A DNA stretch of 64,000 bases from Oscillospiraceae bacterium (GTDB lineage Bacteria; Bacillota; Clostridia; Oscillospirales; UBA929), in NCBI GenBank assembly GCA_031550325.1, contig JAVBOR010000007.1, positions 27,885-91,884 of the forward strand, written 5' to 3'. Positions 3,881-63,646 of the stretch are shown here, piece after piece. The position numbers and the translations under genes are program-made. The first letter of the stretch is position 1, and the number at the start of each line of letters is the position of its first letter. Below the pieces are notes generated by a model. It was not told where the DNA came from and ran no database searches. It saw nothing but the letters and a program-made list of their open reading frames with translations.

Positions 3881-3965
3881 CTCCCGGCTGCAGACAAGCC
3901 CAAGGGTTTGTCCGTAGCCGGGAGAAGGTCAGACTGCCAAAGAACGCAGGTTCATTGGCAAAGCG
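3881..3965. repeat. Partial copy of the interspersed intergenic repeat family (hairpin module plus ttcatt module)
   Basis: The imperfect hairpin ctcccggctgcagacaa/ttgtccgtagccgggag (3881-3923) matches the tgcagacaa...ttgtctgca module. cgcaggttcattggcaaagcg (3944-3965) resembles cgcgggttcattccgggaaag in the copy at 10438-10613. Confidence 0.5.
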
Positions 3966-6173: not shown

Positions 6174-6195
6174 GCGGGAAAACCGGGCAAAAGAC

Positions 6196-6396
6196 CCTCA
6201 CGTCCTCGTCCTTTTTCGGGTTTCACGTCGAGCCTGACGGCACAGCCGGCAGGTCCTTGCTGGACTGGTTTGGCGCAAAGTTTTGAAATGAGTGATTTTC
6301 ACGGATTCATTCCGGAAAAGTCATTCTTTGCGCGTCTTCGCAAAGACGCGAGCCTCCCCCCGTTTGCAGACAAACCTTCGATGTGTCGGCAAACGC
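6196..6396 (+). repeat. Full copy of the modular intergenic repeat
   Basis: Modules in order: cgtcctcgtcctttttcgggtttcacgtcgagcctgacggcacagccggcagg; ttcacggattcattccggaaaagtc; the palindrome gcgcgtcttcgcaaagacgcg; the hairpin cgtttgcagaca...tgtcggcaaacg. The same order is seen at 10438-10613 and 63423-63610. Confidence 0.8.
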
Positions 6397-6399
6397 TAA

Positions 6400-6438
6400 G
6401 GGCGCCCTGCGGGACATCTCTGAACCCGCAGGGCGCTG
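6400..6438. terminator. Strong hairpin between the convergent PRTase and deoC genes
   Basis: agggcgccctgcggg, a loop, then cccgcagggcgct, giving a 13-14 bp GC-rich stem. There is no clean U-tract on either strand. Confidence 0.4.
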
Positions 6439-8824: not shown

Positions 8825-10078
8825 ATGGCGCTTGTTGTGGAAATCATCGCCGTGGGAACCGAGCTGCTGCTGGGCAACATTGCCAACACCGACGCGCAGG
8901 ATATCTCCCAGGGCCTGGGCGAGCTAGGGCTGAACTGTTATTTTCATACCACCGTCGGGGACAACGTCGGCAGGCTGGTGCAGGCGCTGGACATTGCCCG
9001 GTCGCGCGCTGACGTCATCATCACAACCGGCGGGCTGGGCCCGACATATGACGATCTGACCAAGCAGACGGTCTGCGAGGCCTTTGGACAGGCGCTTGTG
9101 CTGCACGCGCCGACGTGGGCGCGCATTGAATCGTTTTTCAAGCAGGTGGGGCGGCCCGTCACCGAGAACAACCGCCAGCAGGCGTATTTGCCCGAGGGCT
9201 GCACGGTGTTTGAAAACAACTGGGGCACGGCGCCGGGATGCGCGTTTTTGGCCGGAGGCAAGCATGTGCTGCTGCTGCCCGGCCCGCCGCGCGAGTGCCG
9301 CCCGATGTTCAGAGTCTGTGCGATGCCCTATTTGGCCAAGCTCAGCGAAAAGGCGCTTGTCTCGCGAAATGTGCGGATTTTTGGCAGGGGCGAGTCGGAT
9401 GTCGAGCAGCGGCTGCGCGAAAAGATGCTCTCGGCGAGCAACCCCACAATCGCGCCGTACGCCAAGGAGGGGGAGGTGATGCTGCGCGTCACCGCCTCGG
9501 CCGACACCAAGGAGCAGGCCTATGCGCTGACCGAACCCGTGGTCAAGGACATTCTGGACACGCTGGGTGACATCGTGTACGGCGTGGACGTCGAAAATCT
9601 GGAGGGCGTAGTGCTTGATCTGTTGGCGCAGCACGACCGCACGCTAGCGGTGGCTGAGTCGTGTACAGGCGGCATGATCGCCGCGCGGCTGACGGCCATT
9701 CCCGGCGCATCGAGTCATTTTGTCGGAGGGGTGTGCGTATACCAGACGCAGCTGAAGACCGCTCTGCTCGGCATTTCGCGCGAGGATCTGACGCGGGACG
9801 GCGTGGTGTCCGAGCCCACGGCGCGCGCCATGGCTATCGGCGTCTGCCGGGTTACCGGCGCCTCGTTGGGCCTGGCCGTCACAGGACTGGCCGGCCCGGG
9901 CGGAGACGGGTCGCTGACGCCGCTGGGTACGGTCTGGGTGGCTCTGCATGACGCCCAGACCGGAGAGACCCTGGTCAAGGGCGGAAATTTTGGCGACGAG
10001 CGCTATCGCGTGCGGCAAATGGCCGCCAACACGTCGCTGGACACGGTGCGCCGGCACCTGTTGGCCGTCAAAAGCTGA
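8825..10078 (+). CDS. cinA: Competence/damage-inducible protein CinA (MoCF-type domain fused to a PncC-like NMN deamidase domain)
   Basis: MALVVEIIAVGTELLLGNIANTDAQ and ITTGGLGPTYDDLT, with C-terminal LAVAESCTGGMIAARLT. Confidence 0.85.
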   Translation: MALVVEIIAVGTELLLGNIANTDAQDISQGLGELGLNCYFHTTVGDNVGRLVQALDIARSRADVIITTGGLGPTYDDLTKQTVCEAFGQALVLHAPTWARIESFFKQVGRPVTENNRQQAYLPEGCTVFENNWGTAPGCAFLAGGKHVLLLPGPPRECRPMFRVCAMPYLAKLSEKALVSRNVRIFGRGESDVEQRLREKMLSASNPTIAPYAKEGEVMLRVTASADTKEQAYALTEPVVKDILDTLGDIVYGVDVENLEGVVLDLLAQHDRTLAVAESCTGGMIAARLTAIPGASSHFVGGVCVYQTQLKTALLGISREDLTRDGVVSEPTARAMAIGVCRVTGASLGLAVTGLAGPGGDGSLTPLGTVWVALHDAQTGETLVKGGNFGDERYRVRQMAANTSLDTVRRHLLAVKS

Positions 10079-10099
10079 TGACAAACGTCTGGGTTGTCA

Positions 10100-10265
10100 T
10101 CAAGCGGGAGATGGCATCAAACCGCTGAGGCTGTTTGCGGAAAAAGCTTTTTTCGGAGTGTATCCGTGAACGCATTGCGGCCTAATCTTTATCAGTTTTC
10201 CGTCCGGCAGGGATCCGACGGCTGCGCCGTCAGGCACGACGCAAAGCAGGTAAAGGAGCAGGCGT
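10100..10265 (-). repeat. Full copy of the intergenic repeat, reverse orientation
   Basis: ttttcggagtgtatccgtgaa is the reverse complement of the ttcacggattcattccggaaaa module. ccgacggctgcgccgtcaggcacgacg is the reverse complement of the cgtcgagcctgacggcacagccgg module. Confidence 0.7.
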
Positions 10266-10288
10266 GAAGTTTTTTTGACAAAGCTGGT

Positions 10289-10327
10289 CGGGCTCTTCCG
10301 GGCTAAACCCTGGAGAGCCCGGCTTTT
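10289..10327 (+). terminator. Candidate terminator downstream of cinA
   Basis: cgggctcttcc, a loop, then ggagagcccg, followed by gcttttcacgtttt. Confidence 0.4.
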
Positions 10328-10437
10328 CACGTTTTGCGCCTGCTCGGCGGGAGAGGGGTTCGGACCTGCCGCATACACCTTTATATATAAGGAGTCAGCA
10401 TGCAGGTAAAAGTAGCCGCCGCGCACCTTTGCGCAAG

Positions 10438-10613
10438 ACCACGTCGAGCCTGACGGCGCAGCCGACAGGTTTTTGCTGGACCCTTTTTGCGCAAAGCATT
10501 GAAAAAAGAGGCTTTCGCGGGTTCATTCCGGGAAAGTTGTTCTCTGCGCGCCTCTGCAAAGCAGCGATTCGTCTTCCGCCTGCAGACAAGCAAAGGGTTT
10601 GTCTGCAGGCGGA
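10438..10613 (+). repeat. Full copy of the intergenic repeat, forward orientation, ending in a perfect 14-bp hairpin
   Basis: cacgtcgagcctgacggcgcagccgacagg; ttcgcgggttcattccgggaaag; ccgcctgcagacaa gcaaaggg tttgtctgcaggcgg. The copy is bracketed by the 16-nt direct repeat acctttatatataagg at 10377-10392 and 10615-10630. Confidence 0.8.
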
Positions 10614-10731
10614 TACCTTTATATATAAGGGATATGCGCGCGCATTACTCTGCGCGCGTATATCGCCATTAACATAACACGATATTCTTCCTCAGCCTAG
10701 TTTTGGACGCTAAAATGTCGGCAAAAAAAGC

Positions 10732-17659: not shown

Positions 17660-19053
17660 GTAACGGGCTTTCGCAGGCGGAAATTGACGCCTTGCTGCGG
17701 GGAGAACCCGTTCCGGGCGTTGAACCGTCACCTCCCGAGGACGAAATTCAGCCGGGGAATGCGCTTCCATCCTCGGAAATTGCCAAGGCTTTTACCGAGG
17801 CGCAGGACGAGGAGGGCGCTGACGAAGAGGATCTGATTGAACCGATGACCCCAAGTGAGGCCAAAGCCGCTTTTGCCGCGGCCGGTCTGGAAGAGGACGG
17901 AGAGGCGCAGGAGCGCAAACCGGACGGCTTCCCGGACGTGAAGCCCGACACCAGCGGCGTACTCACTCCCATAGAGGTCGACGCTATGGGGGAGATCGGA
18001 AATATCAGCATGGGAACGTCGGCCACAACACTGTTTGCGCTGCTCAACCGCCGGGTAGATATCACGACGCCCAAGGTTTCGGTAGCGACGATGGCAGAAA
18101 TCGCCAGGACCTATCCGCTGCCGTTTGTGGCGGTTGAAGTCAAATATACCATTGGACTCGAAGGCACCAATGTCCTGTTTCTCAAACAGAGCGATGTGAA
18201 GATTATCACGGATCTGATGCTTGGCGGGGACGGCACCAATGTCTCGGGTGAGCTGACCGAGATGCACATGAGCTGCATCAGCGAGGTCATGAACCAGATG
18301 ATGGGGTCGGCGTCTACCTCACTGGCGAAAATGCTCAATAAGTCCATTGACATTTCTCCGCCGACGGCGTATCAGGTCAATCTTGCCGAACCGAAAACCT
18401 ACCCGTTTTCCGAGATGGACGATATTGTTGTGCGTACTGGTTTTGACATGGAAGTTGAGGGGCTAATCAAAAGCGAGATCATGCAGATTACCCCTGTGCC
18501 GTTTGCTAAGGAGATGGTTCGCACCTTGATGAACATCAATGCCGAGCCCGCCGCGCCCGCCGCACCGGCGCCGCAGGCCACCGCGCCGGCGCCACAGGCG
18601 CCGCAGACTCCTCCCCCGGCTGCGCCTCAAGCAGCGCCGCAGGCTGCGCCCGTCCAGGCGCAGAGGGAGTATGAGCCTCAAGCAGCGCAGTCCCACCAGT
18701 CCCCGCCTTCCCCCATGCGCCAACAGGCTGTCGATGTGCGGCCGATGCAGTACGCCTCCTTTGAAGGCAACCCTGTGGGCGAGACGGTAGGTGAGAATAT
18801 GGACCTTTTGCTGGATGTTCCCTTGCAGGTTTCGGTGGAACTCGGCAAAAGCAGGAAGTATATTAAGGAAATTCTGGACTTCAACGTCGGGACCATCATT
18901 GTGCTGGACAAAATGGCCGGCGAACTTGTGGATGTCGTTGTCAACGGAAAGCTCATCGCCAAAGGCGAGGTCGTCGTCATTGATGAAAGCTTTGGCTGCC
19001 GCATCACGGATATTATCAGCCCGTCCAAGAGGATTGTCGCTGATAGCAAGTAA
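17656..19053 (+). CDS. fliY: Flagellar motor switch phosphatase FliY (CheC-like domains plus a FliN C-terminus)
   Basis: The N-terminus is LSQAEIDALL. The CheC-like segment is GEIGNISMGTSATTLFALLNRRV. The FliN/SpoA C-terminus is LLLDVPLQVSVELGKSRKYIKEILDFNVGTIIVLDKMAGELVDVVVNGKLIAKGEVVV. Confidence 0.85.
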   Translation: MSNGLSQAEIDALLRGEPVPGVEPSPPEDEIQPGNALPSSEIAKAFTEAQDEEGADEEDLIEPMTPSEAKAAFAAAGLEEDGEAQERKPDGFPDVKPDTSGVLTPIEVDAMGEIGNISMGTSATTLFALLNRRVDITTPKVSVATMAEIARTYPLPFVAVEVKYTIGLEGTNVLFLKQSDVKIITDLMLGGDGTNVSGELTEMHMSCISEVMNQMMGSASTSLAKMLNKSIDISPPTAYQVNLAEPKTYPFSEMDDIVVRTGFDMEVEGLIKSEIMQITPVPFAKEMVRTLMNINAEPAAPAAPAPQATAPAPQAPQTPPPAAPQAAPQAAPVQAQREYEPQAAQSHQSPPSPMRQQAVDVRPMQYASFEGNPVGETVGENMDLLLDVPLQVSVELGKSRKYIKEILDFNVGTIIVLDKMAGELVDVVVNGKLIAKGEVVVIDESFGCRITDIISPSKRIVADSK

Positions 19054-19457: not shown

Positions 19458-20402
19458 GTGATCGCGGAAACACGACTTCCCCTTTTTGCCGCAAGTCTGG
19501 GATCGCAGCAGATCTTCGGGCTGGTTGTGGGTGTCGCTGTCTTTATTCTGCTTATGGCCGGTTCGTATTTTGCGCTGAAGTGGCTTTCGGGGAAGGGGTT
19601 CTCCGGGGGCAAGAGCAAATATATGAAGGTGCTTGACCGCCTTGCCATGTCTAAAGAATCCTCGTTTATTTTGCTGGAGGTCGGCTCGCGCATCTTTGCC
19701 GTGGCTGTGAGCAAGGATGGTGCCAGTGTGCTCGGCGAGCTCGACCGCGATGAGCTCGGTGCGCCACAGGCAGCCGCGCCACAGGCGGCAGCGCCGCAGA
19801 CTGCCGCCGAACAGGGGCGGCAGGCCGGCTTTGGCAAACGTATGGCGCACAACCTCAAACTCAATATGGGCCTTCTGCCCAAGGGAACGCCACCGCTTGG
19901 CCCGACGCCGCCCGGCAAGGCGCCTGAGGCGGCAGTTGTTTCTCTCGCCCCAGAGCAGCCCGCGCCGGCACAGGTCGGGCCGTCCGGGGAGACGTTCCGC
20001 GATGCGCTGGCGCAGGCCAGACAGCGTCAGCAGTTCAACCCGATTTCCTCCGCTCCCAAGAGCCAAGGAACGTCGGGTCAAACTTATGTTCAGCCGTCTG
20101 CGCCGCCGACCGGCGAGGCAGCGCGTTATGACGAGATTATCAACAATATGCGGTCGCTTGGACAACTTGACGGCGCTGCGCAGCACAAGGGCTTTACAAG
20201 GCCCGAGCCTGCGCCCGCGCCTGTTCGGGCGGCCGCCGCGCCGGACGAAGCGCCGACTGGCCCGCCGCGTGCTGCGTCTATGGAACGCCCGCCGGCCGTT
20301 GAGGCCAGCGCCGATGAAAAAATGGATCAAATGTTTGACCTGATTGCCAAACGGAAGGCCCGCTTCAGCCAGACAGGCGGGCGGGGGAAGGAAGCGCCAT
20401 GA
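19458..20402 (+). CDS. fliO: FliO/FliZ-family flagellar export protein with a long Pro/Ala-rich C-terminal extension
   Basis: It has an N-terminal TM ([22 protein letters not shown]) and a FliO core ([39 protein letters not shown]), and sits just before fliP. The remaining roughly 200 aa are low-complexity. Confidence 0.6.
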
Positions 20403-39008: not shown

Positions 39009-39193
39009 TCGTAAACTAAGCTAGCCAAGGGCATAGTATTCATATGGCATTGTCAGACGGGCGCTACGCCCGTTTGGCATGTCAGGAGAAAATTCCTCAC
39101 AAAAACCTCACAACTTCCCCCCTCCTATGAGGGCCTATCCTGTCAAGAGGTAGGGAAACCTCTTGCGACATATTGAATGGAGGCAACTCACTC

Positions 39194-41335
39194 ATGAAAA
39201 CCAAGAAATTACTGTCTCTGGTGCTTGCGTTTGTGTTCGTAGCCAGCCTGGCGGCAATTCCCGCGTTTGCCGAAGGCGAGACCGAAGAAGTCGTAGCCTT
39301 TAATCCCGGCATCGTTTTTGAAGAAGCAGTTGACTACACCCTCATCCCGACCGTGGACAGAATCGGCGACACCACCGTCACCACGGCGTTTGACGCCGTG
39401 ACCGCCGCCCTGGCAGAAGGTTCGATTAAGCTCGACCTCGGCGCTGAGAAGCTCTTTGTGCCCGAATCCGTAGCCATCGCCGCGTACAGCGTGGATGGCG
39501 GACAGAAGTGGAAGACGGCTTCCCTGGGCTCCAACACCGGCGCAGACATCAGCAAGCTTCTGAACAAGGAAAACACCATCTGGCTGACCACTTCGTATGA
39601 CAAGAAGGCCAAGGGCCCCACAAAGGGTACCGCCGCTGTTGCCCAGACGGCTGACAAAGAAGCCGTTGCTGCTGTTGAAGGCGCTGTCGTCCTGAAGTTT
39701 GCCAAGATCGCCGCCCGCCCCAAAGCCGAGAAACTGGTTGTCAACTACGCGCTGTTTAAGGACGCTACGGGAGTGACCCCCGGCGAGTGGGCGCTGACCA
39801 AGAAGGACGCCACAACCACCGCCGTGAAGACCGGCCTGCAGGTTGCCCTGTCCGACGACAAGAAAAACCCCAATGTGACCAAGGTTGAAGAAGTGTCCTT
39901 CACCTGGGGCGCATTCCCCGAAGAGGGCGGCCTGAACGTGGAAGCTCTGGCCGAAGGTTCCAAGCCCACCAAGCGCGTGTACCTGGTTCGCCTCCAGCCT
40001 GTTATGGAAGCCGGCAAATACGCGCCCGCGTCCAAGCCCGCTAAAGTAACCGCGTCCAGCGAACAGAAGGCTGTCAAGCTCAAAGCCGACTACAAAAAAG
40101 AGCTGATCAAGGGCAAAGAAAACCTGAACGTGTTCTTTGGCGGAGACATCTCCAAAGTCGATGCTGAAAAGACCTATACCAAGGATGCCCCGCGCGGCAC
40201 GCTGATGGCTCCCATGACCAAAGAGCAGGCCAAAGCGGGCGTCGATATCTCGACGTATATGACCGAAGCTCGCGAGAGTGTTACGCTGTGGATCGGTGCC
40301 ACTGAGAAGAAGCCCGCCACTGCCAAGCAGGTCATCAAACTCGCTGCACGCGCCTATCTGAAAAATGAGGCCCTTTCCCCGGCCAAGGGCAAGCTGAAGG
40401 TCGACAGCAAAAAGTATGAAGTGCTCAACACTGAAAAGAATAAGTGGGGCTCGCTGCCCAAAGTCGAAGCCAGCAAGACGCTTTCCATCCGCCTGAAAGC
40501 CACCGCCAAGGGCGGCAAGGAAGACGACACGACCTATGCAGCAAGCCGCAACGGCGGACTGGTCCTCGGGTTTGGCCCGTTTGACGAGAAGAAGCTTGAC
40601 AAAAAGGGAATCGTCTCCGCCATGGTGAACGCACCCGAATATGCGGGCGTGCTGACCGCGGTTCCGGAAACCGAGAGCGTCTCTGTTGAGTTCGGCATGA
40701 CGACCCAGACCGTCGTCTTTAACGTCACCGGCCTTGTTGAGGATGACACGCTTGTCAGCGAAGCCGGCGCAGGCAAAATCAGCTATGACGTGTCCTTTGG
40801 CACCGCCGACATTGTTTCCGCAACCTCTTCGTACGCCGACAAGAAGATTACGCTGACCCTGACCACTAAGAACGCCGGCAAGACCAGCGTGGACATCGCG
40901 TTTACCGTCGACGCCGCAGTGGAAACTGCCGATCTGTACTTCCCCGAAATGTTCTCCACACTCCCGGCCAATGTCACCGTTACGCCCAAAGCCCTGAAGC
41001 TTCCTGACGTCACCGCCGCCACCATCGCCGCGCTCTCCGCGACTGCTGTGAAGTACACCTTTACGTTTGAAGACTCGCTGAAAGCCCTGCTGACCAGCGG
41101 CGCAGTGAAGATCACCAACAACACGCTGAGCAACGTGAGCGTGAGCTACGACACCGCGACAGAGGGCAAGATCATCGCCTCGGTCGTTGGAAGCGGCAAC
41201 AATGAGACCCCGCAGGAGCTCGTCTTTACCCTGGCGGTTGACGCTGCCAAGACCACGAACTATGTGGTCGCCGAAACCGCCATCACGAAAACCGTGACCA
41301 TCACCAAGGTCGCCGCGCTGAGCGAAGGCGAATAA
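39194..41335 (+). CDS. Secreted protein of unrecognised family, paralog 1 (713 aa)
   Basis: RBS is aatggagg. The signal peptide is MKTKKLLSLVLAFVFVASLAAIPAFA. It shares an ordered motif series with the next two genes: YSVDGGQKWK, RPKAEKLVVNY, PASKPAKVT, KADYKKELIK, ATEKKPATA, KWGSLPK, IRLKATAKGGKE. Confidence 0.85.
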   Translation: MKTKKLLSLVLAFVFVASLAAIPAFAEGETEEVVAFNPGIVFEEAVDYTLIPTVDRIGDTTVTTAFDAVTAALAEGSIKLDLGAEKLFVPESVAIAAYSVDGGQKWKTASLGSNTGADISKLLNKENTIWLTTSYDKKAKGPTKGTAAVAQTADKEAVAAVEGAVVLKFAKIAARPKAEKLVVNYALFKDATGVTPGEWALTKKDATTTAVKTGLQVALSDDKKNPNVTKVEEVSFTWGAFPEEGGLNVEALAEGSKPTKRVYLVRLQPVMEAGKYAPASKPAKVTASSEQKAVKLKADYKKELIKGKENLNVFFGGDISKVDAEKTYTKDAPRGTLMAPMTKEQAKAGVDISTYMTEARESVTLWIGATEKKPATAKQVIKLAARAYLKNEALSPAKGKLKVDSKKYEVLNTEKNKWGSLPKVEASKTLSIRLKATAKGGKEDDTTYAASRNGGLVLGFGPFDEKKLDKKGIVSAMVNAPEYAGVLTAVPETESVSVEFGMTTQTVVFNVTGLVEDDTLVSEAGAGKISYDVSFGTADIVSATSSYADKKITLTLTTKNAGKTSVDIAFTVDAAVETADLYFPEMFSTLPANVTVTPKALKLPDVTAATIAALSATAVKYTFTFEDSLKALLTSGAVKITNNTLSNVSVSYDTATEGKIIASVVGSGNNETPQELVFTLAVDAAKTTNYVVAETAITKTVTITKVAALSEGE

Positions 41336-41547
41336 GGCTTAAACCCCGCATCCAAAGCAAAACATGCGAACAGAGCGGGGAACCCCCGGCACAGCGCCGG
41401 GGATTCCCCGTTCCCCCGGATTGACGCTGTTTTGCGTGTCAGGCAGGCCGAACTGCCTGGTGTGCAAAACATCGCTAATCGGTAAAACGAGGAGCTTAAG
41501 CAGACAATCACCGCGCGGGTTCACGCGGATACAAAGGAGATGCCATT

Positions 41548-44500
41548 ATGAAACGCATCGGAATCCTCTTGCTGGCGCTTTGCTGCGCGGTTTGCGCCAT
41601 GACCATTTCTGCACTGGCCGCGGACGAGCCGGCCACCTTTGACCACAACATCAACTATGCCGACAATCTGTCGGCCAACCGCTACAAGGTTAGTGCCGAC
41701 TCCAGCGACGCATGGATCGACCTGGGAACCGAGCGCCTGTACGCGGCTGACGGCGTCAACATCAGCGGCATCAGCTACGACGGCGGCAACAAGTGGAAGA
41801 CGGTCGTCGTCCCCGCGGAAGGGCTTGACCTGACCAAGGCATTCAACAAGCCCACCTCGATCGTGTTGGCCACGCAGATGAACGGCAAGAAGCCCCGTCT
41901 CACGGCCTCGGCCGACGGTTCGGAGCCCGCGGGCAAGCTCATCAAGTTTCCCTCGATCTCCGGCCGGCCCAAAATAGACAAGTTTATAGTCAACTATCTA
42001 GTCGGCGCGGACGACACCGGCGCGACAAACGGGCGCTGGGTGCTGACGCTGAAAGATTCCAGCAGGCCGCTGACCGGCTATCAGGTCGCGCCCTCGCTTA
42101 ACAAAAAGACGCCCGATACCGTCATGCTCGACACCAGTGGAAAGGTCAGTGACTCCGGCACGGTGGAAGCCAGCTGGGGGAGCTTTTCGCTCAGCGGCAG
42201 CGCCCAGGGCGTCAGTATCATCGGCCTGACCGAAAGCGGCAAACAGCAGAAGCTGAACTACGTTGTGCGTGTGGCGCCGAACGCGCAGACGCGCACACCA
42301 GCCTCCAAAGTGAAAAAGATCACCGTGGCCGGCGTCGGCAAGAAAGTTGTGTTTAAGGCCGATTATAAAAAGGAAATCATCAAGCTCAAAGAAAACGGCA
42401 TGTTCTTTGAGGGGGATCTCGCCGGTCTCGGGCAAAACACGACAAAGCTTTCCCGCCAGTCCAAGGATGAGGCAAAAGCCGGGACTCAGCTGGGGAACAT
42501 GATGGAAAAAACCGCCTGCATGTGGATTGCGGCCACGGTCAAAAAACCGGCCACAGCGGCGCAGGAAGTGACGTTTGCAGCGCGCGGCATGATGAAAGAG
42601 ACCGAACTGAAGGTGGCCTCGGGCAAAACAAGCGTCAGCACCAAAGAGTATGAGATCTACGACCCCGCCAAGAAAAAGTGGGGCTCGCTGCCCAAGCTTA
42701 CGGGCGCATGTGAACTGGGTATCCGCATCAAGGCTACCGCGAAGGGCGGCAAGGAGTCGGATGACACGAAGTTCGCAGCCAGTGAAGAGGGAAAACTGGT
42801 CATTGACTGGGGCGAATACACCAAGGGAAAATCAGGCGTTATCGGCGCGGCGATCATTGCGCCGGAGTATACGGGCGTTTTCCGGTATAGTCCGGACAAG
42901 ACAGTGTACATCCAGGACGAGTCGGATACGACCTTTACGGTGACCTTTGAGGCCAAGGGCCTTTACTCGGGCGACACTCTGGTGCTGAAGGCCACCGGCG
43001 ACACCCTCACGGACGTGGCTGCGGGCGAGGTTTGGATCAGGCCCAAAGTCAACTACAAGAACACGGGCGCCGCGGAGGACTCCATTACCTACACGGCGAG
43101 CCTTTCCGACGGAAAACTGAAGCTGGAGGTCATGCCCGAGCTGGCCTGCGAGGCCACCATTGAGCTTGAGTACGCTCTGGGCACGCACAGCCCGGTCTAT
43201 GACGCTGACAACAGCGGGGGCCGCGCGGCGGTGATCAAGGTCAACAGCGTCGGTGAAACCGTGAAGCTGAACAGCATGAAACCCGCGTATCTGGACGACG
43301 GCGTGCGCATCAGCATGACGACCGCGGCCACCAGCGGCACCACGCCGCGCCGCGCCAAGGTTGTCAAGGGCACAGCGGTCATCTCGTCCGACGGCCAACT
43401 GCAGATGGCTTCCAAGCAGGATTTGAGCGGGTATACCAGCTTTACCTACGCTGCCTCCGACAAGGACGAAGCGCTGCCCGAAGAATCTGTGTTTACAAGC
43501 GACGCTGTCGAGGTCAGCCATGAGGGATATCTATTTGTCAAAGCCGAGGGGCAGGGCAAGAGCACCATCTACTTTGCCTATGAACTCAAGGACGCCTCGG
43601 GCGCGCGCATGAAAAGCGCTGCCTTCTCGGGCGACCAGGTGATCGTTACGCTTGACGAGCCGCTGTCCGACAGCGCCGAAACAGGCGGAGCGTCCATTGT
43701 CCTGGAGGGCTGGGGCGTAGGCCAGGCCACGCGCAGCTATGTGACAAACATCGCCCTCAGCGCGGACAAGAAGCAGATGACCATGACGCTGGACGACGGG
43801 TTTGCGATGCAGAGCGGCGCAAAATATGTGCTGACCTACAGCGGCGCGACGCAGTCGGACGTTTTGTCCGACCGGCACAGCAACGCGATGCAGCCCGGCA
43901 GCGTGCCGGTCGGCAGCATCAGCGGCGTGGACCGCGTCCGGTTTGAAAACGGACTGATGAACACCCCTGTCGACGTCGTGGCCCCTGAGCCGGTCTCCTC
44001 GCTGTCGGCGCTGACTACAGACAACATTTACAGCATTTCGCTGGCCGGAAGCAACACGGGCATGATGATTGTTGACGGCGCAACCAGTGTGCAGTATGCG
44101 CGCAGCAACACACTGATGGCCACCGAGATGACCATGAACAGCTTCACCAACGGAACCGTTGTCTCCGGCCTGAGCGTGGGCGATTATCTGTATGTCAAGG
44201 CCGACGGGAAATATTATGTGTTCCAGGTGGCCAAAAACTCGCTGGCCAGCACGACCGACACCACGCGCCCGCTGGCCTCCAGCGCCGCGCTTATCAAGTC
44301 CGAAGCCACCTACACCGCCACGCTGACCGCCAACGAGGCGCTGCTCAAGTTCGGCCTTGGGCCGAGACCCGAGCAGTTCAGAATTGACACGGGCACGCTC
44401 AACAATATTGCAGTGAGCAAAGTGGCCGTTTCGGGCACAAAGATTACGCTGACCCTCACGGGAAGCGATCTCAGCGGCATCGCGAACGGCGATGATGTCA

Positions 44501-44619
44501 AAATCACTTATAACACCGGCAGAAACGGCATTTCGGACGCGAACGGAAACCGCGTCCTGGCTTTCAACACGGTCAAGCTGACGCTGTCCGGCTTTTCCAC
44601 CGCTTCGCCGTTGCCTTAA
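41548..44619 (+). CDS. Secreted protein of unrecognised family, paralog 2 (1023 aa)
   Basis: RBS is aaaggaga. The signal peptide is MKRIGILLLALCCAVCAMTISALA. Motifs are SYDGGNKWK, RPKIDKFIVNY, PASKVKKIT, KADYKKEIIK, ATVKKPATA, KKWGSLPK, IRIKATAKGGKE. The long beta-rich C-terminal half has D-x-x-GN endings (ISDANGNRV). Confidence 0.85.
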   Translation: MKRIGILLLALCCAVCAMTISALAADEPATFDHNINYADNLSANRYKVSADSSDAWIDLGTERLYAADGVNISGISYDGGNKWKTVVVPAEGLDLTKAFNKPTSIVLATQMNGKKPRLTASADGSEPAGKLIKFPSISGRPKIDKFIVNYLVGADDTGATNGRWVLTLKDSSRPLTGYQVAPSLNKKTPDTVMLDTSGKVSDSGTVEASWGSFSLSGSAQGVSIIGLTESGKQQKLNYVVRVAPNAQTRTPASKVKKITVAGVGKKVVFKADYKKEIIKLKENGMFFEGDLAGLGQNTTKLSRQSKDEAKAGTQLGNMMEKTACMWIAATVKKPATAAQEVTFAARGMMKETELKVASGKTSVSTKEYEIYDPAKKKWGSLPKLTGACELGIRIKATAKGGKESDDTKFAASEEGKLVIDWGEYTKGKSGVIGAAIIAPEYTGVFRYSPDKTVYIQDESDTTFTVTFEAKGLYSGDTLVLKATGDTLTDVAAGEVWIRPKVNYKNTGAAEDSITYTASLSDGKLKLEVMPELACEATIELEYALGTHSPVYDADNSGGRAAVIKVNSVGETVKLNSMKPAYLDDGVRISMTTAATSGTTPRRAKVVKGTAVISSDGQLQMASKQDLSGYTSFTYAASDKDEALPEESVFTSDAVEVSHEGYLFVKAEGQGKSTIYFAYELKDASGARMKSAAFSGDQVIVTLDEPLSDSAETGGASIVLEGWGVGQATRSYVTNIALSADKKQMTMTLDDGFAMQSGAKYVLTYSGATQSDVLSDRHSNAMQPGSVPVGSISGVDRVRFENGLMNTPVDVVAPEPVSSLSALTTDNIYSISLAGSNTGMMIVDGATSVQYARSNTLMATEMTMNSFTNGTVVSGLSVGDYLYVKADGKYYVFQVAKNSLASTTDTTRPLASSAALIKSEATYTATLTANEALLKFGLGPRPEQFRIDTGTLNNIAVSKVAVSGTKITLTLTGSDLSGIANGDDVKITYNTGRNGISDANGNRVLAFNTVKLTLSGFSTASPLP

Positions 44620-44759
44620 TGCTGTCTATCCAGGGGCCGTCTCAGAGTCGGCTCCTGGATAGCCTATATGCCCCGCGGGCCGGCAAGGCCCTTGTTTAGA
44701 GTTTCCCCGGCGCCCCGATGCCTGGACCCTATACAGATCAATTGCCTGGAGGTGGAGAC

Positions 44760-47546
44760 ATGAAACGTGCACTGTCGCTGATTTTGTCCCTCGCGCTTTG
44801 CGCCGGTATGATGGCCGGGCTGGGACAGCCGCGGGCTGCCGACGGTCGGGAAAGCGCGCCGGATGTGTACATTCAGGACAACCGGCTGTATCTCCAGGGG
44901 GAGACGACGACCTTTGAAAACATGCTGCGCAACTTTGACGTGCGCTATGTCCCGGCCAAGGACGCGCACACGTTCAGCCTGGCCACGCTCAACACGGACA
45001 GCAGCTACGCCGAAAACGCGTATAAGCTGTATCTCGACCCGCTGAATATCCAGTTCGGCTCTTATATTGAGCTGGTCAGCGTGTCGATGGTTCCCGGAGA
45101 TGTGCTGTACATCGCCTATATGGACTATGACGCCGTTGAGCCCGGGCTGTACGCGCAGATTACGCTCTCAGAGCAGATGCTGGCGATGACCACGACGCAG
45201 AACCCCGCCCAACTGCCGAAGCTGGCCGTTACGGCCTCGACGCTGACCATCACGCCCGGCAACCGGTACACGCAGTATGAATATGCCGTGATCCCCGCAG
45301 TCAGGCCGGCCGACTTCACCCCTGCGTGGATTTTGGCGGGCTCGGCGGCTCAGCAGAACGCGTCGGCGATCAAGGTCAGTCTTCAGCCGCGCGCCGGGGC
45401 GTATACCCTCCGCGTGCGCGTTCAGGGGGACGACCGAGCGGGATTCTATTACGCCTCGATCACCGGAATTACCACTGCGACGCCGATTGTCTCGCTCGAA
45501 CTTGAGGCGCTCGGTCCGCTTGTCGGCGGGAAAAACGGCGAAACATACTATTTCAGCAGTGACGGCGGGTCGTCCTACAAGACGGTCTTCGTTGCGCCCA
45601 ACGAGGAATTTGTCATTGACCTGAGCAAGGTCTTCGGAAAAAAAGAAGTGCAGCTCATTTTGAAAAAAGCCAGCGGGGACAAGGACCCAAAGGATATCAC
45701 GGGAGCGCTTCTCCAGCGCTCTGTAAACGCGCGCGCCGACTTCCCCAAGGAGGCCAAACCGCAGGCGTATGTCAGCGCGAAATACACTGAAAACTTTACG
45801 CTCTCGGGGCTGAGCGGTGAAAAACTGGAGGCCCGTTTGCCGCAGACAGCGCAGTATATCAGCTTTCTGCCGAGCGTGGGACTGCCGCTGCTGTCGGCAG
45901 CCGAGCAGGCGATGAAGAAAAAGGCTATGAAAATTGAGTTCCGCGTGGCCGCCAATACGTCGACGATGACGCCGGCTTCTGCCCCGAAAAAGATCACGCA
46001 GCCCAAGCAGACCAAGGCGCCGACCGTCAAGGTTGACTACAAAAAGGAGATCATCAAGCTCAAGGGGGGCGTGTCGATTGCCTATGCGGACGCGCCGACG
46101 GCCGATCCTTCCACGCTGAAGTTCTCTCAGGTGCAGGGCGACGAAATTAGCGTTTCGGACGCCATCACCACGGGCAAGGTTATGTACTTTTACCTCAACG
46201 CGACCGAAAAAAAGTCGCGTTCTGCTATCCAGCGCGTGAAGTTTGCCCCGCGCCACATCAGACCCGACAACCAGGAGGGTCTGGTTGTGGAAAAGGGCAA
46301 GCTCAAACTGACCAAGGGCTTCGAGGTGTACGCCGCGGAAAAGGGCAAGTGGGGCTCATTCCCCAAGGGCGAAAAAGTGGTCAGCTTGCGCCGCAAGGCG
46401 GATGCCAAGTATAACAAAAAGACCGGCGCGTCGACGGGCAACGCCGCCAGCGTTTCGGTGACGGCGAAGGTCGCCTACGACAAAGACGGCAAAACGGTTC
46501 TCAGCGCCGTGTCCCCCGACAAGCTTTCGCTGAGTACGACGGGTATTTCGTACCGAAACGTGCGCAACAGCCATGTGGACGTCTGGCCCAATGACAACGC
46601 TGAGATTTACGTCAAGGGGCGAACGCTGTACGCCATCTCTATCACCTCGCCCTATGACAACATCGGCGACAGCCGCACATGCGACTTTTCTCTGTCTATT
46701 GCAGCGCCGTACTTAGACGGAGAGAGACTGGCCGAGACGGTCAAATACTGCCTAAACGGTGAAACGGTGTCCGAGGATCAATACACATGTGTGTTTCGGA
46801 GTGTCTCGGTCGGTGATGAGGTGACCTTCGTGCTCACGCCAAAGGACCCCGACAACTACAGAGAGACCACCTACAAGTTTGTGGTCGGCCTTCCGTTTGA
46901 GGACACGCCGTACAGCGTGACGTGGAATGTTTCGGGGACGCGTCGAAGTGAGGTCACCGTCAGGCTGCCGCAAAACCTGTACGCGGGGGAGACGGCGCGT
47001 CTGCAGGTCAAGCTCATCAAGGTCGTTAACGGCGTCGACACCACCGTCGTCGACCGGCAGGAGACGCGCGGCTATGACCCGACCGGCGCCGCCAACAACA
47101 ACTTTACCATTGACTTTACCTCTGAGATCACGCGCTCCGGCGTCGGACGATACCTCGTCAGGGTGCAGCGGCTGGGTACGGCCGGGCTTTCCCAGAACAG
47201 CGGCGTGGTGAGCTCGTCAAACCTGCTGGTCTATGAAAGCGATCTCCAGCTGACCACCGTGACGCTGAGCGAGGCAGCCGCCGTGCGTCAGGACACGGTT
47301 TTGTCTGTGGACAAGGCAACCGACGGCCTGGGCAACGATTTACTCAGCACAGCCACCTTCCAGTGGGTGACCTCCGATACGGATCCGAGCGGAGCGGGGA
47401 CGTCCATAGACGGTCAGACCGCCCGCGCGTTCACGGTGCCCGCCGGACTGGAAGGAAAGTTTATCGGGGTGCGCGTCACAAACAAAAATGTGTCGATTAT
47501 CCGCTGGTATACGACCGTCGTGACCCCCGCGCCCGGCTCTCCCTGA
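44760..47546 (+). CDS. Secreted protein of unrecognised family, paralog 3 (928 aa)
   Basis: RBS is ggaggtgg. The signal peptide is MKRALSLILSLALCAGMMAGLG. Motifs are SSDGGSSYK, PASAPKKIT, KVDYKKEIIK, ATEKKSRSA, GKWGSFPK. An extra N-terminal region of about 250 aa precedes the shared core. Confidence 0.85.
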   Translation: MKRALSLILSLALCAGMMAGLGQPRAADGRESAPDVYIQDNRLYLQGETTTFENMLRNFDVRYVPAKDAHTFSLATLNTDSSYAENAYKLYLDPLNIQFGSYIELVSVSMVPGDVLYIAYMDYDAVEPGLYAQITLSEQMLAMTTTQNPAQLPKLAVTASTLTITPGNRYTQYEYAVIPAVRPADFTPAWILAGSAAQQNASAIKVSLQPRAGAYTLRVRVQGDDRAGFYYASITGITTATPIVSLELEALGPLVGGKNGETYYFSSDGGSSYKTVFVAPNEEFVIDLSKVFGKKEVQLILKKASGDKDPKDITGALLQRSVNARADFPKEAKPQAYVSAKYTENFTLSGLSGEKLEARLPQTAQYISFLPSVGLPLLSAAEQAMKKKAMKIEFRVAANTSTMTPASAPKKITQPKQTKAPTVKVDYKKEIIKLKGGVSIAYADAPTADPSTLKFSQVQGDEISVSDAITTGKVMYFYLNATEKKSRSAIQRVKFAPRHIRPDNQEGLVVEKGKLKLTKGFEVYAAEKGKWGSFPKGEKVVSLRRKADAKYNKKTGASTGNAASVSVTAKVAYDKDGKTVLSAVSPDKLSLSTTGISYRNVRNSHVDVWPNDNAEIYVKGRTLYAISITSPYDNIGDSRTCDFSLSIAAPYLDGERLAETVKYCLNGETVSEDQYTCVFRSVSVGDEVTFVLTPKDPDNYRETTYKFVVGLPFEDTPYSVTWNVSGTRRSEVTVRLPQNLYAGETARLQVKLIKVVNGVDTTVVDRQETRGYDPTGAANNNFTIDFTSEITRSGVGRYLVRVQRLGTAGLSQNSGVVSSSNLLVYESDLQLTTVTLSEAAAVRQDTVLSVDKATDGLGNDLLSTATFQWVTSDTDPSGAGTSIDGQTARAFTVPAGLEGKFIGVRVTNKNVSIIRWYTTVVTPAPGSP

Positions 47547-47703
47547 CGTGGGGAGGGCAAACAGCAATATATTGATGTACCAGTTAAACCTTGCGCCAAT
47601 CTGCGGGGAAAATGCGTCGCCCGCTGGGCGGGCAGAGCGTTTTGAGGAGCAAACTGCGCAAGGTTTAATCGTGGGACCAATAGTAAGCCACAAGTAAGCC
47701 ACA

Positions 47704-47790
47704 AGGCGTTGCGGGACTCAGTTCCGCAACGCCTTTCTCTGCGCGTCTTTGCGAAGACGCGCGTCTTACCTCGATTTGTTAGTGAACCAA
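47704..47790 (+). repeat. Partial copy of the intergenic repeat (hairpin module plus gcgcgtctttgcgaagacgcgc palindrome)
   Basis: aggcgttgcgg gactcagtt ccgcaacgcct is followed by ttctctgcgcgtctttgcgaagacgcgcg. The same hairpin arms recur at 56208-56238. Confidence 0.65.
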
Positions 47791-47805
47791 AGGTTTCTTA
47801 AAAGC

Positions 47806-54319: not shown

Positions 54320-54394
54320 GCGGGAGTAGTTCAGCGGTAGAGCGTCGGCTTCCCAAGCCGAAAGTCGCGGGTTCGAATCCCGTTTCCCGCTCCA
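54320..54394 (+). tRNA. tRNA-Gly (anticodon CCC), with encoded CCA
   Basis: Cloverleaf read by eye. The acceptor stem is gcgggag/ttcccgc. The anticodon stem is tcggc/gccga with loop ttCCCaa. The T arm is gcggg ttcgaat cccgt. The 3' end is tcca. Confidence 0.9.
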
Positions 54395-54395
54395 C

Positions 54396-54442
54396 GCGGA
54401 GTGTTCTTACAGCGACTTTGCTGTGAGAACACTCCGCTTTTT
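54396..54442 (+). terminator. Rho-independent terminator after tRNA-Gly
   Basis: gcggagtgttcttacagc gacttt gctgtgagaacactccgc, followed by ttttt. Confidence 0.65.
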
Positions 54443-54496
54443 CCTTTTGGCTGACAGAGAACCCTTGGTTCTTTGTCAAAGCGAGGGCTTAGATCA

Positions 54497-54547
54497 AACC
54501 GCCTGCGGCGTCAGGCTCGACGCGAATCCAGGAAAAGGACGAAGGCG
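54497..54547 (-). repeat. Partial copy (5' module) of the intergenic repeat, reverse orientation
   Basis: gcgtcaggctcgacgcgaatccaggaaaaggacgaaggcg is the reverse complement of the cgtcct...ttcacgtcgagcctgacgg module. Confidence 0.65.
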
Positions 54548-54693
54548 TAAAGCGCTTTCTTGACAAAGCAGCCCCGCCCATTCCTGCCGGACACGGAATT
54601 ATGGCGAAAAAGCAAAGCTTTTGCAGCTCAAGCCCGATGATCTTTTCAAATGTAAACATGTGTGGTATACTGCAGCAAAGAAAGGATGAGTCT

Positions 54694-56136: not shown

Positions 56137-56137
56137 T

Positions 56138-56166
56138 CTGTGAAAGAACCTCCCGTTCTTTCACAG
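56138..56166. terminator. Perfect 12-bp hairpin between the convergent M20 peptidase and pfp genes
   Basis: ctgtgaaagaac ctccc gttctttcacag. Confidence 0.5.
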
Positions 56167-56189
56167 AGCGGGGACTGGTTTAAACGGCT

Positions 56190-56238
56190 GCGGCGGTTTG
56201 CAGAGAAAGGCGTTGCGGAAGTGATTCCCGCAACGCCT
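56190..56238 (-). repeat. Partial copy (hairpin module) of the intergenic repeat, reverse orientation
   Basis: gcagagaaaggcgttgcgg aagtgattc ccgcaacgcct. The reverse complement shares ccgcaacgcctttctctgc with 47725-47743. Confidence 0.6.
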
Positions 56239-56258
56239 CAGATTCAATCTTTTGCGCC

Positions 56259-57551
56259 TTACTCGGTCTCTTTGCGGAAGCCCTCGGGCGTGTAGCCGGG
56301 GAGCTTTGGGGAAAGCGGGACGCAGCGCAGACGCGCAAAGCGCTGCAGACCGTGCTCCATAGGGCTGTCCGGCCAACTCTCGCCGATGAGCGGCATGGCG
56401 TAGCGCACAAAGTCATCGGTGACGTCGGTCTTGTCAGGGCTGAGCCAGTGCGCAGGCAGATGGCGCTCGGAGAGAGCGACAACGCGCAGGGGAACCTTGT
56501 CGTAGCGCGGGCGATAGGGAAGGCCCTGCCCACGCAGGATGGTGGCCATGAAGCCCGTGCCGTCGCGCATGGCCATGTCGACCGCGTGCGCGCCCACCTG
56601 GTACGCCTCTTCAATGTCGACGCGCGAGCGGTAAATGGCAGTTGAGCGCTGGAGAACGCCAGGCACCTGTCCCGTGACCTGCCCGCGCGCGTTGAGCCCG
56701 GATTGGTTGAGATGGTTGACCACCACCTGGGCCACCGTGGACTGGGACGCGCCATATTCCACGTGGCCAAAGCCGTCGCGCTTTTCGCCGAGCGATCCGA
56801 CCGGAAAGCCCTCGCTGACGACAACGACGCAGCGTCCGTGCCGGGCGAGCGACTGGCGCACGTGGTCGGTCAGTTCAGGGAGGCCCAGGCCGCTCTCGGC
56901 AAAGAACATCTTCAGCGGCGTCTGCCGCCCGGGGTCGGAGAGCCGCGCCGCCGCTGTGATGAATCCGCTGCCGCGGCCCATGGCCTGCAGAACGGCAACG
57001 GGCTCGGACACGCACATGCCCCTGTTTTCCTCTTCGGTGTTCTGAATGACGCTGGCCCAGTAGCGCGCGGCGCTGCCGTAACCCGGCGTGTGGTCGATCA
57101 CCGTAAACTCCTCGTCGCCGATGTCGTTGTCAATCGTCTTCGGCACGCCTGCCACAACGAGCTCCAGCCCGCGGCGGCGCGCCAGCGCGGAGATTTTGTC
57201 GGCGGTGTCCATGCTGTCGTTGCCGCCGATGTAGAAAAAATACCCGATGTTGTGGGCGCGGAAGACGTCAATGATGCGTTCGTAGTCAGCCTCTTTGGCA
57301 TCGGTCAGCTTGTATCGGCAAGTGCCGATGGCGCCCGACGCGGGAGTGCAGCGCAGCAAGGAGAGCTCGTGCGGATCCTCCCGGCCGAGGTCGGTGAGCG
57401 ACTCGGTCAGCACGCCCTCAATGCCGTGGCGCGCTGCAAGCACCGAGCCGATCGCGTTCGGGTACGCCAGACAGCGCTCCAGCGTGCCGAGCAGAGAGGC
57501 GTTGATGACAGGGGATGGGCCGCCCCCAAGGGCAATGAGCGCGTTGACCAT
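56259..57551 (-). CDS. pfp: Phosphofructokinase, PPi-dependent-type signature (diphosphate--fructose-6-phosphate 1-phosphotransferase)
   Basis: PFK fold: GGGPSPVINA, YIGGNDSMD, GVPKTIDNDI. Asp in GGNDS and Lys in PKTIDND sit at the positions that are Gly104 and Gly124 in ATP-dependent E. coli PfkA. Those two substitutions are the classical PPi-specificity markers. Confidence 0.8.
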   Translation of the reverse strand: MVNALIALGGGPSPVINASLLGTLERCLAYPNAIGSVLAARHGIEGVLTESLTDLGREDPHELSLLRCTPASGAIGTCRYKLTDAKEADYERIIDVFRAHNIGYFFYIGGNDSMDTADKISALARRRGLELVVAGVPKTIDNDIGDEEFTVIDHTPGYGSAARYWASVIQNTEEENRGMCVSEPVAVLQAMGRGSGFITAAARLSDPGRQTPLKMFFAESGLGLPELTDHVRQSLARHGRCVVVVSEGFPVGSLGEKRDGFGHVEYGASQSTVAQVVVNHLNQSGLNARGQVTGQVPGVLQRSTAIYRSRVDIEEAYQVGAHAVDMAMRDGTGFMATILRGQGLPYRPRYDKVPLRVVALSERHLPAHWLSPDKTDVTDDFVRYAMPLIGESWPDSPMEHGLQRFARLRCVPLSPKLPGYTPEGFRKETE

Positions 57552-61342: not shown

Positions 61343-61420
61343 CACAGGCTTACAAAACAGACTGACAAAGCAGGGACTGGAGAAACCCAAACGCAGCGTG
61401 TCAAAAAGGTTCTCGCAAAC

Positions 61421-61470
61421 CGCGTCCTTTTTCGGATTCACTCCGGGATAAGGACGAAGGCGCAAAGCAC
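61421..61470. repeat. Composite short copy of the intergenic repeat
   Basis: gcgtcctttttcggattcactccgggataaggacgaaggcg fuses the cgtcctttttcgg and attcactccggga modules, followed by the inverted aaggacgaaggcg. Confidence 0.55.
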
Positions 61471-61498
61471 ATTTTTGACATAACCGTATGGACGTTGG

Positions 61499-63395: not shown

Positions 63396-63422
63396 AGGCC
63401 AGAAGATACACCTTACGCGCTC

Positions 63423-63610: not shown

Positions 63611-63613
63611 TTG

Positions 63614-63646
63614 AGGCCCGCCGGACAGTGTCCGGCGGGCCTTTTT
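63614..63646 (+). terminator. Rho-independent terminator
   Basis: aggcccgccgga cagtg tccggcgggcct forms a 12-bp stem, followed by a t-run. Confidence 0.65.

Follow-up and report, generated by a model that had tools for sequence, protein, structure and literature searches.

A hairpin-rich, MITE-like repeat family in Oscillospiraceae with duplicated palindromes at the ends of its young copies

Introduction

The 64-kb stretch of DNA analysed here, referred to as the window, contains a hairpin-rich sequence that recurs between genes and raises the question of what kind of element it represents and how it reaches the ends of genes. A sequence-only reading had named three possibilities, a REP/BIME-like repeat, a MITE-like element, or a family of structured RNA or terminator modules. 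Bacterial MITEs are common, and transposition directed by hairpins is known from very few elements (IS1272/TnSha1), where the hairpin is destroyed.

Results

Copies of the repeat in the window

At least nine full or partial copies had been described from the sequence alone, and this was borne out by nhmmer with a profile of the copies, by blastn and by a repeat search, which recovered four full copies of about 205-225 bp and five partial or variant copies in the 64-kb window. By nhmmer, the full copies were located at 6181-6408(+), 10405-10621(+), 63405-63623(+) and 10060-10285(-) with E-values of 1e-55 to 1e-66, and blastn and the repeat search concurred on them. In the repeat search, the segments 6224-6391, 10440-10607 and 63441-63608 formed one direct family with inverted partners at 10202-10241 and 54499-54558. 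Partial copies were recovered at 54500-54558(-), 47692-47801(+), 56147-56262(-), 3881-3920 and 61420-61448. An 18-nt core, TTCRCGGRTTCAYTCCGG, searched with up to three mismatches, matched five times in the window compared to 0.38 +/- 0.63 times in shuffled sequences, and none of 100 shuffles reached five matches. All four full copies reported earlier were found, but their true limits (about 6181-6400, 10396-10614, 63400-63613 and 10076-10284(-)) are wider than had been assumed. The conserved modules follow one another in a fixed order in alignments of the copies, as had been noted. The general layout consists of an outer hairpin H0 around H1, followed by H2, H3 and the terminal hairpin H4. 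The full copies and the features next to them are:

6181-6400, plus strand: full copy w6196; nhmmer E=7e-66; left boundary approximate
6233-6253, 6296-6320, 6331-6350 and 6361-6395: H1, H2 core, H3 and terminal H4 of w6196
6402-6436, no strand assigned: independent hairpin with a 12-bp stem, directly adjoining the H4 end of w6196
10076-10284, minus strand: full copy w10100; nhmmer E=2e-55
10290-10320, plus strand: hairpin GGGCTCTTCCGGGCTAAACCCTGGAGAGCCC followed by a T-rich tail, adjoining the left end of w10100; inner stem 10298-10322
10377-10392, no strand assigned: left copy of a 16-bp direct repeat, ACCTTTATATATAAGG (a quasi-palindrome), flanking w10438
10396-10614, plus strand: full copy w10438; nhmmer E=4e-61
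10449-10469, 10512-10536 and 10575-10613: H1, H2 and H4 of w10438
10615-10630, no strand assigned: right copy of the 16-bp direct repeat, a candidate target-site duplication, followed by a hairpin with a 13-bp stem at 10631-10664
63400-63613, plus strand: full copy w63423; nhmmer E=1e-59; left end CAGAAGATACACC
63447-63474, 63513-63537, 63549-63566 and 63582-63608: H1, H2, H3 and H4 of w63423
63614-63642, plus strand: canonical intrinsic-terminator hairpin with a 13-bp stem and TTTTT, immediately 3' of w63423

Copy w6196 is situated between a comF-like gene (stop codon 6171-6173) and deoC, which are convergent, and the hairpin at 6402-6436 probably represents the targeted terminator of comF/deoC. 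Similarly, the hairpin at 10290-10320 is probably the terminator of the cinA operon; it lies next to the left end of w10100, which reads TTGTCAAAAAAA on the minus strand (10270-10284). The copies had been described as exclusively intergenic, and this holds generally but not for w10100, as the stop codon of cinA (10076-10078) forms the first three bases of its H4 (10076-10102). The terminal hairpin of w10438 (10575-10613) has 17-nt arms with 16 pairs. Overall, the copies occur in varied housekeeping contexts and in both orientations relative to the neighbouring genes. Genes found around the copies in the window are comF-like, deoC, thiI, cinA, fliK/flgD, mecA, proS and that of an ECF-BioY component, a gene content indicative of a Clostridia genome with high GC.

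Neither the full copies of 205-225 bp nor the derivatives of 82-118 bp carry a Pfam-bearing ORF, and the copies differ from each other by many indels with lengths that are not multiples of three. In agreement with the earlier statement that no copy carries a transposase, none was identified among the window genes examined or among the large ORFs beside the copies in a second genome described below.

Occurrence in other genomes

Beyond the window, the family is present in another Oscillospiraceae MAG, GCA_031556035.1 (JAVBTT01), whose CinA is 74% identical to that of the window. CinA of the window is identical to P0001, which is encoded on an NCBI contig of 120 kb and on a Logan contig from SRR23967709; the next CinA relatives, this MAG among them, are only 74% identical and belong to Oscillospiraceae. 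Five MAG copies (L007, L018, L028, L053 and L072) were obtained from a scan of a genome collection, and this MAG was the only genome with real copies among the matches listed; the pattern used, the 18-nt degenerate core, was too loose, and 67 of the 72 matches listed were chance matches. The MAG copies, which we regard as young, are 93-96% identical to each other, and the identity of every other pair of copies, including those within the window, is 69-83%. Three of the MAG copies are located at contig ends, and an independent Logan contig (L073) begins inside w6196; repeats with many dispersed copies usually cause such contig breaks.

When the JGI metagenomes were scanned for an H4 pattern, this yielded two divergent full-length members from an unrelated community (L079 and L081), two 3' fragments (L077 and L093) and an 85-nt short form (L085). 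The scan returned 28 loci, most of them probably chance hairpins, as the pattern specifies about ten bases per arm and many terminators could match it; further features of the family were present only in the five loci named and possibly in L094 and L103. The H4 pattern gave no match in viral contigs, a 23-nt core matched neither in the JGI metagenomes nor in the viral contigs, and blastn against plasmids and phages also gave no match. The elements probably belong to gut-type Clostridia, namely an Oscillospiraceae lineage from which few genomes have been sampled, and relatives of it.

Ends of the element and duplications of flanking palindromes

Similarity among the young MAG copies ends at 5'-CAGAGTGAAGACAAAG ... 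GTTTGTCATCGGTCTG-3'. The left end of w10438, CAGCATGCAGGTAAAAG, is homologous to the left end of the MAG copies, and that of w63423 resembles it. The ends of the MAG copies form imperfect terminal inverted repeats (TIRs), in which CAGAGTGAAGACAAAGT and the reverse complement CAGACCGATGACAAACT match at 13 of 17 positions; in the old full copies of the window the TIRs are weak or decayed and hard to discern.

Directly outside the element ends, direct repeats of a locus-specific palindrome were identified, with lengths of 33, 25 and 28 bp at the MAG insertions and of 16 bp at the one copy in the window. At L072 the repeats agree in 33 of 33 bp (AGTTATCCCCCCGCTTTCAGCGGGGGGATAACT) and consist of a terminator-like hairpin after pfk. 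At L028 they agree in 24 of 25 bp (AATCT[G/C]CGCTTGCAGGGCGGAGATT), and the downstream copy is followed by TTTCTTTTT, a T-run. L018 and L007 are two contig ends that represent the halves of one insertion, with a 28-bp repeat with one mismatch that lies within a palindrome with 29-bp arms. In the window, w10438 is flanked by the 16-bp repeat ACCTTTATATATAAGG, which is perfect (16/16 bp). In both species the direct repeats begin exactly where the homologous element ends stop, and the midpoint of each repeat falls within +/-4 bp of the centre of a palindrome. All four duplicated targets are palindromes, and their sequences show no relationship to each other. As a control, 3300 random segments of equal size were analysed, the flanks of which mostly shared 4-8 nt; exact repeats of at least 15 nt occurred in 6 of the 3300, and these samples probably straddle the elements themselves. 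As locus-specific palindromic repeats are situated exactly at the element ends and are this rare at random positions, they are target-site duplications (TSDs).

Such flanking duplications are present at four copies only, and three of the four full copies in the window lack them. However, each of these older copies adjoins a strong hairpin, at 6402-6436, 63614-63642 and 10290-10320, respectively. In relatives with 74% CinA identity, a plain terminator and no element was found after cinA (L075, L076) and deoC (L075).

Partial copies and deletion derivatives

The partial copies mentioned by the sequence-only reading were all found, but three of them, at 54452-54569(-), 61399-61480 and 47692-47801(+), are internally deleted derivatives and not random fragments. 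The partial and variant copies are:

3881-3960, plus strand: two tandem solitary H4-like hairpins, CTCCCGGCTGCAGACAAGCC...GGTTTGTCCGTAGCCGGGAG and 3935-3960, between convergent genes; nhmmer E=4e-4
47692-47801, plus strand: variant 3' half between convergent genes; nhmmer E=8e-7
54452-54569, minus strand: internal-deletion derivative of about 118 bp; nhmmer match 54500-54558 to profile positions 11-68
56137-56262, minus strand: second member of the variant subfamily, between convergent M20 peptidase and PFK genes; nhmmer E=1e-6 (56147-56262)
61399-61480, plus strand: mini-derivative of 82 bp between mecA and proS

In the derivative at 54452-54569(-), the left end CTTTGTCAAGAAAG is retained together with the CGTCCTTTT block and H1, and H4 (54452-54478) follows directly, so that H2 and H3 are absent; this derivative adjoins the terminator of a tRNA-Gly gene (54396-54437). 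In the mini-derivative at 61399-61480, which is bounded by perfect 9-bp TIRs (TGTCAAAAA/TTTTTGACA), the CGTCCTTTTTCGG block on the 5' side is joined to the H2 apex ATTCACTCCGGGA. Thus, both ends are retained in these two derivatives, and 47692-47801(+) represents a 3' half, in which H2 has given way to another hairpin of 14 bp (47703-47735), whereas the linker TTTCTCTGCGCG is retained, as is H3 (47741-47762), and H4 has decayed. In the copy at 56137-56262(-), the hairpin in this position (H2', 56208-56238) is 95% complementary to 47704-47742, and an H4-like hairpin is present at 56137-56167. The copies at 47692-47801 and 56137-56262 make up a variant subfamily with another hairpin at the position of H2. 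Membership of the tandem hairpins at 3881-3960 in the family is weak; ordinary terminators are another possibility. Non-autonomous transposons typically give rise to internal deletions with preserved ends, in line with the MITE-like reading.

Internal hairpins

The hairpin arms had been described as conserved and the loops as variable, which was right and even understated, because the arms covary. In H1-H3, 90.2% of the alignment cells are paired, compared to 37-47% when the partners are slid against each other, and 12 pairs show double-sided changes, compared to 6.2 +/- 1.6 in shuffled alignments, none of which reached 12 in 500 trials. In H3, five of the six pairs covary. For H4, aligned from nine sequences, 93.9% of the cells are paired (31-42% when slid), and 6 of 11 pairs are compensated; the compensated pairs surround a conserved GACAA/TTGTC core. 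H0 is present around H1 in most copies, with the arms CTTTTTCACTTTTGCG/CGCAAGAGTGAAAAAG in the MAG and CTTTGCGCAA/TTGCGCAAAG in w10438. Since copies occur in other genomes and the hairpins covary, the similarity is neither confined to a few loci of the window nor devoid of structural covariation.

Conservation is highest in H2, as all lineages retain its TTCAY loop, its inner stem and an internal purine-purine mismatch. In L079 and L081, CACCCG/CGGGTG has fully replaced CTTTC/GAAAG as the outer stem. The most conserved part of the element is thus internal and not located at the ends, unlike what would be predicted for a plain MITE, and this may point to an additional function.

Folding is about equally good on either strand, with forward/reverse z-scores of, for example, -6.4/-7.1, -2.4/-2.35 and -4.4/-4.9 against mononucleotide shuffles. 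RNAalifold gave about 22 G-U compared to about 9 A-C cells, a count biased by structure prediction on the forward strand and by the non-independent MAG copies. A scan for promoters and terminators detected no sigma-70-like promoter and no intrinsic terminator inside the copies; an internal promoter suggested by eye, TTGAAA-N17-TTCAYT, received no support from the promoter scanner. The Rfam scan that the sequence-only reading had proposed as a check matched no family, as only a tRNA-Gly (54320-54391) was identified in the window at gathering thresholds. At E<=10, the copies gave only hairpin-driven matches of 14-22 bits, compared to gathering scores of 37-84. The hairpins are constrained, but as the strands fold alike, the copies occur in both orientations and no promoter was detected, these data lend no support to a constraint at the RNA level.

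Discussion

A MITE-like transposon as the best explanation

The family probably consists of non-autonomous, non-coding MITE-like elements that are mobilised in trans by a DDE transposase joining the element ends at palindromes. No autonomous IS with matching ends was found in about 130 kb from the two genomes, nor in plasmids, phages or viral contigs, and as no autonomous partner was found, we infer mobilisation in trans. A transposase encoded elsewhere in the genome would recognise the ends of the element by the G(A/T)CAAA core, which recurs in the terminal hairpin, and the same enzyme would recognise as its target a palindrome or terminator hairpin without a specific sequence. The 3'-OH ends of the element would be joined on either side of this palindrome. 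The simplest sites for this would be the two feet of an extruded stem-loop or cruciform, which are spatially near each other. Gap repair would then duplicate the whole palindrome, resulting in a long target-site duplication of variable length that is centred on it. Strand transfer on either side of the palindrome would explain both the variable length of the duplications (16-33 bp) and their centring. Over time, the flanking repeats would decay, or copies with long perfect repeats would be lost by recombination between them, so that surviving old elements would simply adjoin a hairpin. Precise loss of the element should be favoured where long perfect direct repeats are separated by about 220 bp, which may explain why old survivors lack repeats. 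Internal deletions would give rise to the shorter derivatives with retained ends.

Of the possibilities that had been named from the sequence, the MITE-like element is thus the one favoured by the TIRs, the long TSDs, the end-preserving derivatives, the varied contexts and the absence of the element after cinA and deoC in relatives. A further-reaching version appears unlikely. In it, the copies would be the natural footprint of a pathway that has so far only been drawn, in which a DDE transposase would attack the 5' feet of an extruded terminator stem-loop or cruciform, so that the whole hairpin is duplicated and a terminator on either side insulates the insertion. In addition, H2, the stem of which is fully compensated between lineages, would act in cis and be read in a folded, single-stranded form, as DNA during transposition or as an RNA encoded by the element.

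Alternative explanations

The covariation of the hairpins, which had been anticipated when structured RNA or terminator modules were considered, is real, and non-coding RNAs with the hairpins as their helices, either sRNA genes or modules of 3' UTRs and terminators, spread by duplication or on a mobile element, would account for pairing and compensatory changes in H1-H3 and H4 well above the slid and shuffled controls. It would also account for the retention of the H2 loop TTCAY and mismatch in L079 and L081 while the outer stem was swapped, and for the terminators directly after several copies. However, the copies match no Rfam family even at E<=10, the two strands fold about equally without a strand bias, and no sigma-70-like promoter lies within the copies. 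They are found in both orientations relative to the upstream gene, and the young ones have a terminator on each side. TIRs, TSDs and end-preserving deletions are properties of DNA transposition, and compensatory changes in a quasi-palindrome are possible at the level of DNA too, so that we consider an RNA family very unlikely. Hairpin-rich intergenic sequences with conserved loops that can fold on both strands are also typical of ends recognised as single-stranded DNA, as expected of a REP/BIME-REPIN or IS200/IS605-type PATE moved by a Y1 HUH transposase (RAYT/TnpA) that reads hairpins. Against this, which is also the REP/BIME-like repeat suggested earlier, stands that such families lack TSDs and TIRs, whereas the present one has TIRs and direct repeats of 16-33 bp. 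The unit is about 215 bp long with four or five different hairpins rather than a 20-40-nt palindrome or an inverted REP doublet, and no RAYT/TnpA was identified among the window genes examined or the ORFs beside the MAG copies. A REP- or PATE-type origin is therefore extremely improbable.

A MITE might instead be moved by a transposase of the IS1202 family, which makes a long, fixed stagger, with palindromes being merely a preferred target. The direct repeats of 33, 25, 28 and 16 bp are close to the published classes for this family, the subgroups with long repeats occur in Firmicutes, and the mini-derivative at 61399-61480 has the termini TGT...ACA. Yet a single subfamily with 93-96% identity has repeats of 33, 25 and 28 bp, so that their length is not fixed, they are centred on palindromes, and the MAG copies start with CAG or CAA rather than TGT and end with CTG. 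In addition, the paper on this family (bioRxiv 10.1101/2022.12.17.520857) reports no targeting of palindromes or terminators for the IS1202 and ISTde1 subgroups. We therefore regard an IS1202-family transposase as quite unlikely.

Comparison with known systems

For a MITE-like family that inserts at hairpins, IS1272 of the IS1182 family would be the closest mechanistic precedent, and the IS1202 family the rival one. In staphylococci, IS1272/TnSha1 target stem-loops by their structure without a sequence consensus, and RNA-seq has confirmed several of these stem-loops as terminators. The likeness comprises the target, a potential stem-loop (there frequently a Rho-independent terminator with experimental proof), insertion at the hairpin base, and Firmicutes hosts. 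IS1272L has extra tandem copies of its end sequence, and in the present family the GACAAA core occurs three times. In contrast, IS1272 is autonomous, 1.9 kb long and encodes a transposase of 548 aa, whereas the present elements are 0.2 kb long and non-coding; and IS1272 deletes the target hairpin and leaves no TSD, whereas the young copies described here duplicate the palindrome. This duplication matches the alternative pathway b of the published IS1272 model. Elements of the IS1182 family have direct repeats of 0-60 bp in ISfinder.

In the IS1202 family (ISNCY), direct repeats measure 27-28 bp in the IS1202 subgroup and 15-17 bp in the ISTde1 subgroup, both of which are present in Firmicutes, or else 5-6 bp, and the inverted repeats start with 5'-TGT (bioRxiv 10.1101/2022.12.17.520857) and are about 24-26 bp long. 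Long direct repeats, Firmicutes hosts and, in the mini-derivative, TGT termini are shared with the present family, and one IS1202 subgroup targets palindrome-like XerC/D sites. However, the length of the repeats is fixed for each IS1202 subgroup, whereas here a single subfamily shows lengths from 25 to 33 bp, in accordance with the palindrome; the young copies begin with CAG, and terminator targeting is undescribed for the subgroups with long repeats.

In overall appearance, the closest analogues are the pneumococcal BOX, RUP and SPRITE elements, which are considered MITE-like and have no transposase of their own (PMC3049150), although the family is not a member of this group. They are likewise shorter than 300 bp, intergenic, hairpin-rich, of Firmicute origin and enriched between convergent genes or near gene 3' ends, and BOX is modular with variable internal modules, as is the case here. 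There is, however, no evident sequence relationship, they are AT-rich, and duplication of a whole hairpin is unreported for them; SPRITE is itself a terminator-like hairpin and not an element that targets hairpins.

Further systems share single features. REP/BIME, REPIN-RAYT and IS200/IS605 PATEs are intergenic palindromes recognised as hairpins, but have much shorter units, neither TSD nor TIR, and depend on a Y1 HUH transposase; the PATEs carry subterminal hairpins and insert on the 3' side of a fixed sequence of four or five nucleotides. Class C group II introns also select a secondary structure, the stem-loop of terminators, but are ribozymes of 0.7-2 kb that produce no TSD. IS1397 and ISKpn1 target REP loops by structure but, unlike the present elements, insert in the loop with a TSD of 3-4 bp. 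A 2024 review of prokaryotic MITEs mentions neither MITEs linked to IS1182 nor hairpin duplication (PMC10969869). New in the present case is a MITE-like family that has the palindrome-centred duplication of a whole hairpin as its footprint, a footprint that had been predicted and rarely seen before.

Significance

If the further-reaching version is true, the family would represent a previously undescribed structure-guided MITE/transposase system. The young copies carry a complete terminator-like palindrome on each side, which suggests a route by which a selfish element can enter gene ends without abolishing termination, and the long direct repeats should make the insertions reversible. The elements also provide a small natural substrate with which the transposase responsible can be sought and tested. 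In practical terms, the family breaks the assemblies of Oscillospiraceae MAGs, and it rewrites the 3' ends of genes, as at cinA in the window, which it supplies with a stop codon.

Insertion sites of the element and a possible effect on cinA

At window 10060-10102, cinA and the inverted copy adjoining it (10076-10284, minus strand) overlap: the copy's terminal hairpin H4 (10076-10102) begins with TGA (10076-10078), which is the stop codon of cinA. The protein ends in ...HLLAVKS*, whereas its 74% identical relatives end in ...YLQ(G/E)L*. Given the stop within H4 and a C-terminus unlike that of these relatives, insertion of the element appears to have reshaped the end of CinA and provided its stop codon.

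A possible 4-nt direct repeat, AGGC, was noted on either side of the copy at 63400-63613 (window 63394-63399 and 63614-63617), the right-hand AGGC being the start of the terminator stem; it may represent either a minimal target duplication or a coincidence.

In the related Oscillospiraceae genome GCA_031556035.1, one insertion of the element was split between two contigs, JAVBTT010000021 (L018 1-200) and JAVBTT010000008 (L007 1-260), one ending and the other starting inside it. As both contig ends carry the same insertion and their outer flanks form the two halves of a single palindrome with 29-bp arms, the contigs can be joined across the element.

Related and additional repeats

The following arrangement was found on two contigs of metagenome Ga0182027:

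L094 1150-1240 and L103 130-215: GC-rich hairpin GCCCCGC...GCGGGGC, then an identical H4 hairpin, CGATGACAAACGTGAGTTTGTCATCG

The arrangement resembles a short repeat of H3+H4 type, and its occurrence in an unrelated community hints that the right-end module is wider in distribution than the full element.

A second conserved motif is common to the window genome and GCA_031556035.1:

Window 47563-47685: 13-bp inverted repeat TTAAACCTTGCGC ... GCGCAAGGTTTAA, about 70 nt between the arms, then TCG[T/C]GGGACCAATA
GCA_031556035.1, L007 276-304, L074 19474-19502 and L072 4065-4101: pieces of the motif, 90-93% identity

The pieces lie near gene 3' ends at all three loci. An Rfam search of the motif gave sub-threshold matches only (ncS01, 30 bits vs a gathering score of 58). 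Like the main family, the motif may represent a small element, either mobile or structured.

Repeats within genes of the flagellar region

The flagellar cluster is adjoined by a run of three large genes (window 39173-47546; products of 720, 1023 and 942 aa). They have repeated segments in common (direct-repeat families D2, D3 and D7) and resemble tandem paralogues encoding a family of uncharacterised proteins; in Pfam, only one of the three gave a match, a weak one to SWM_repeat ('putative flagellar system-associated repeat'). ORFs of the cluster itself contain repeats of family D4, which are probably linker regions:

Window 18538-18609 and 19761-19802: low-complexity repeats rich in Pro and Ala (GCGCCGCAGGC...)
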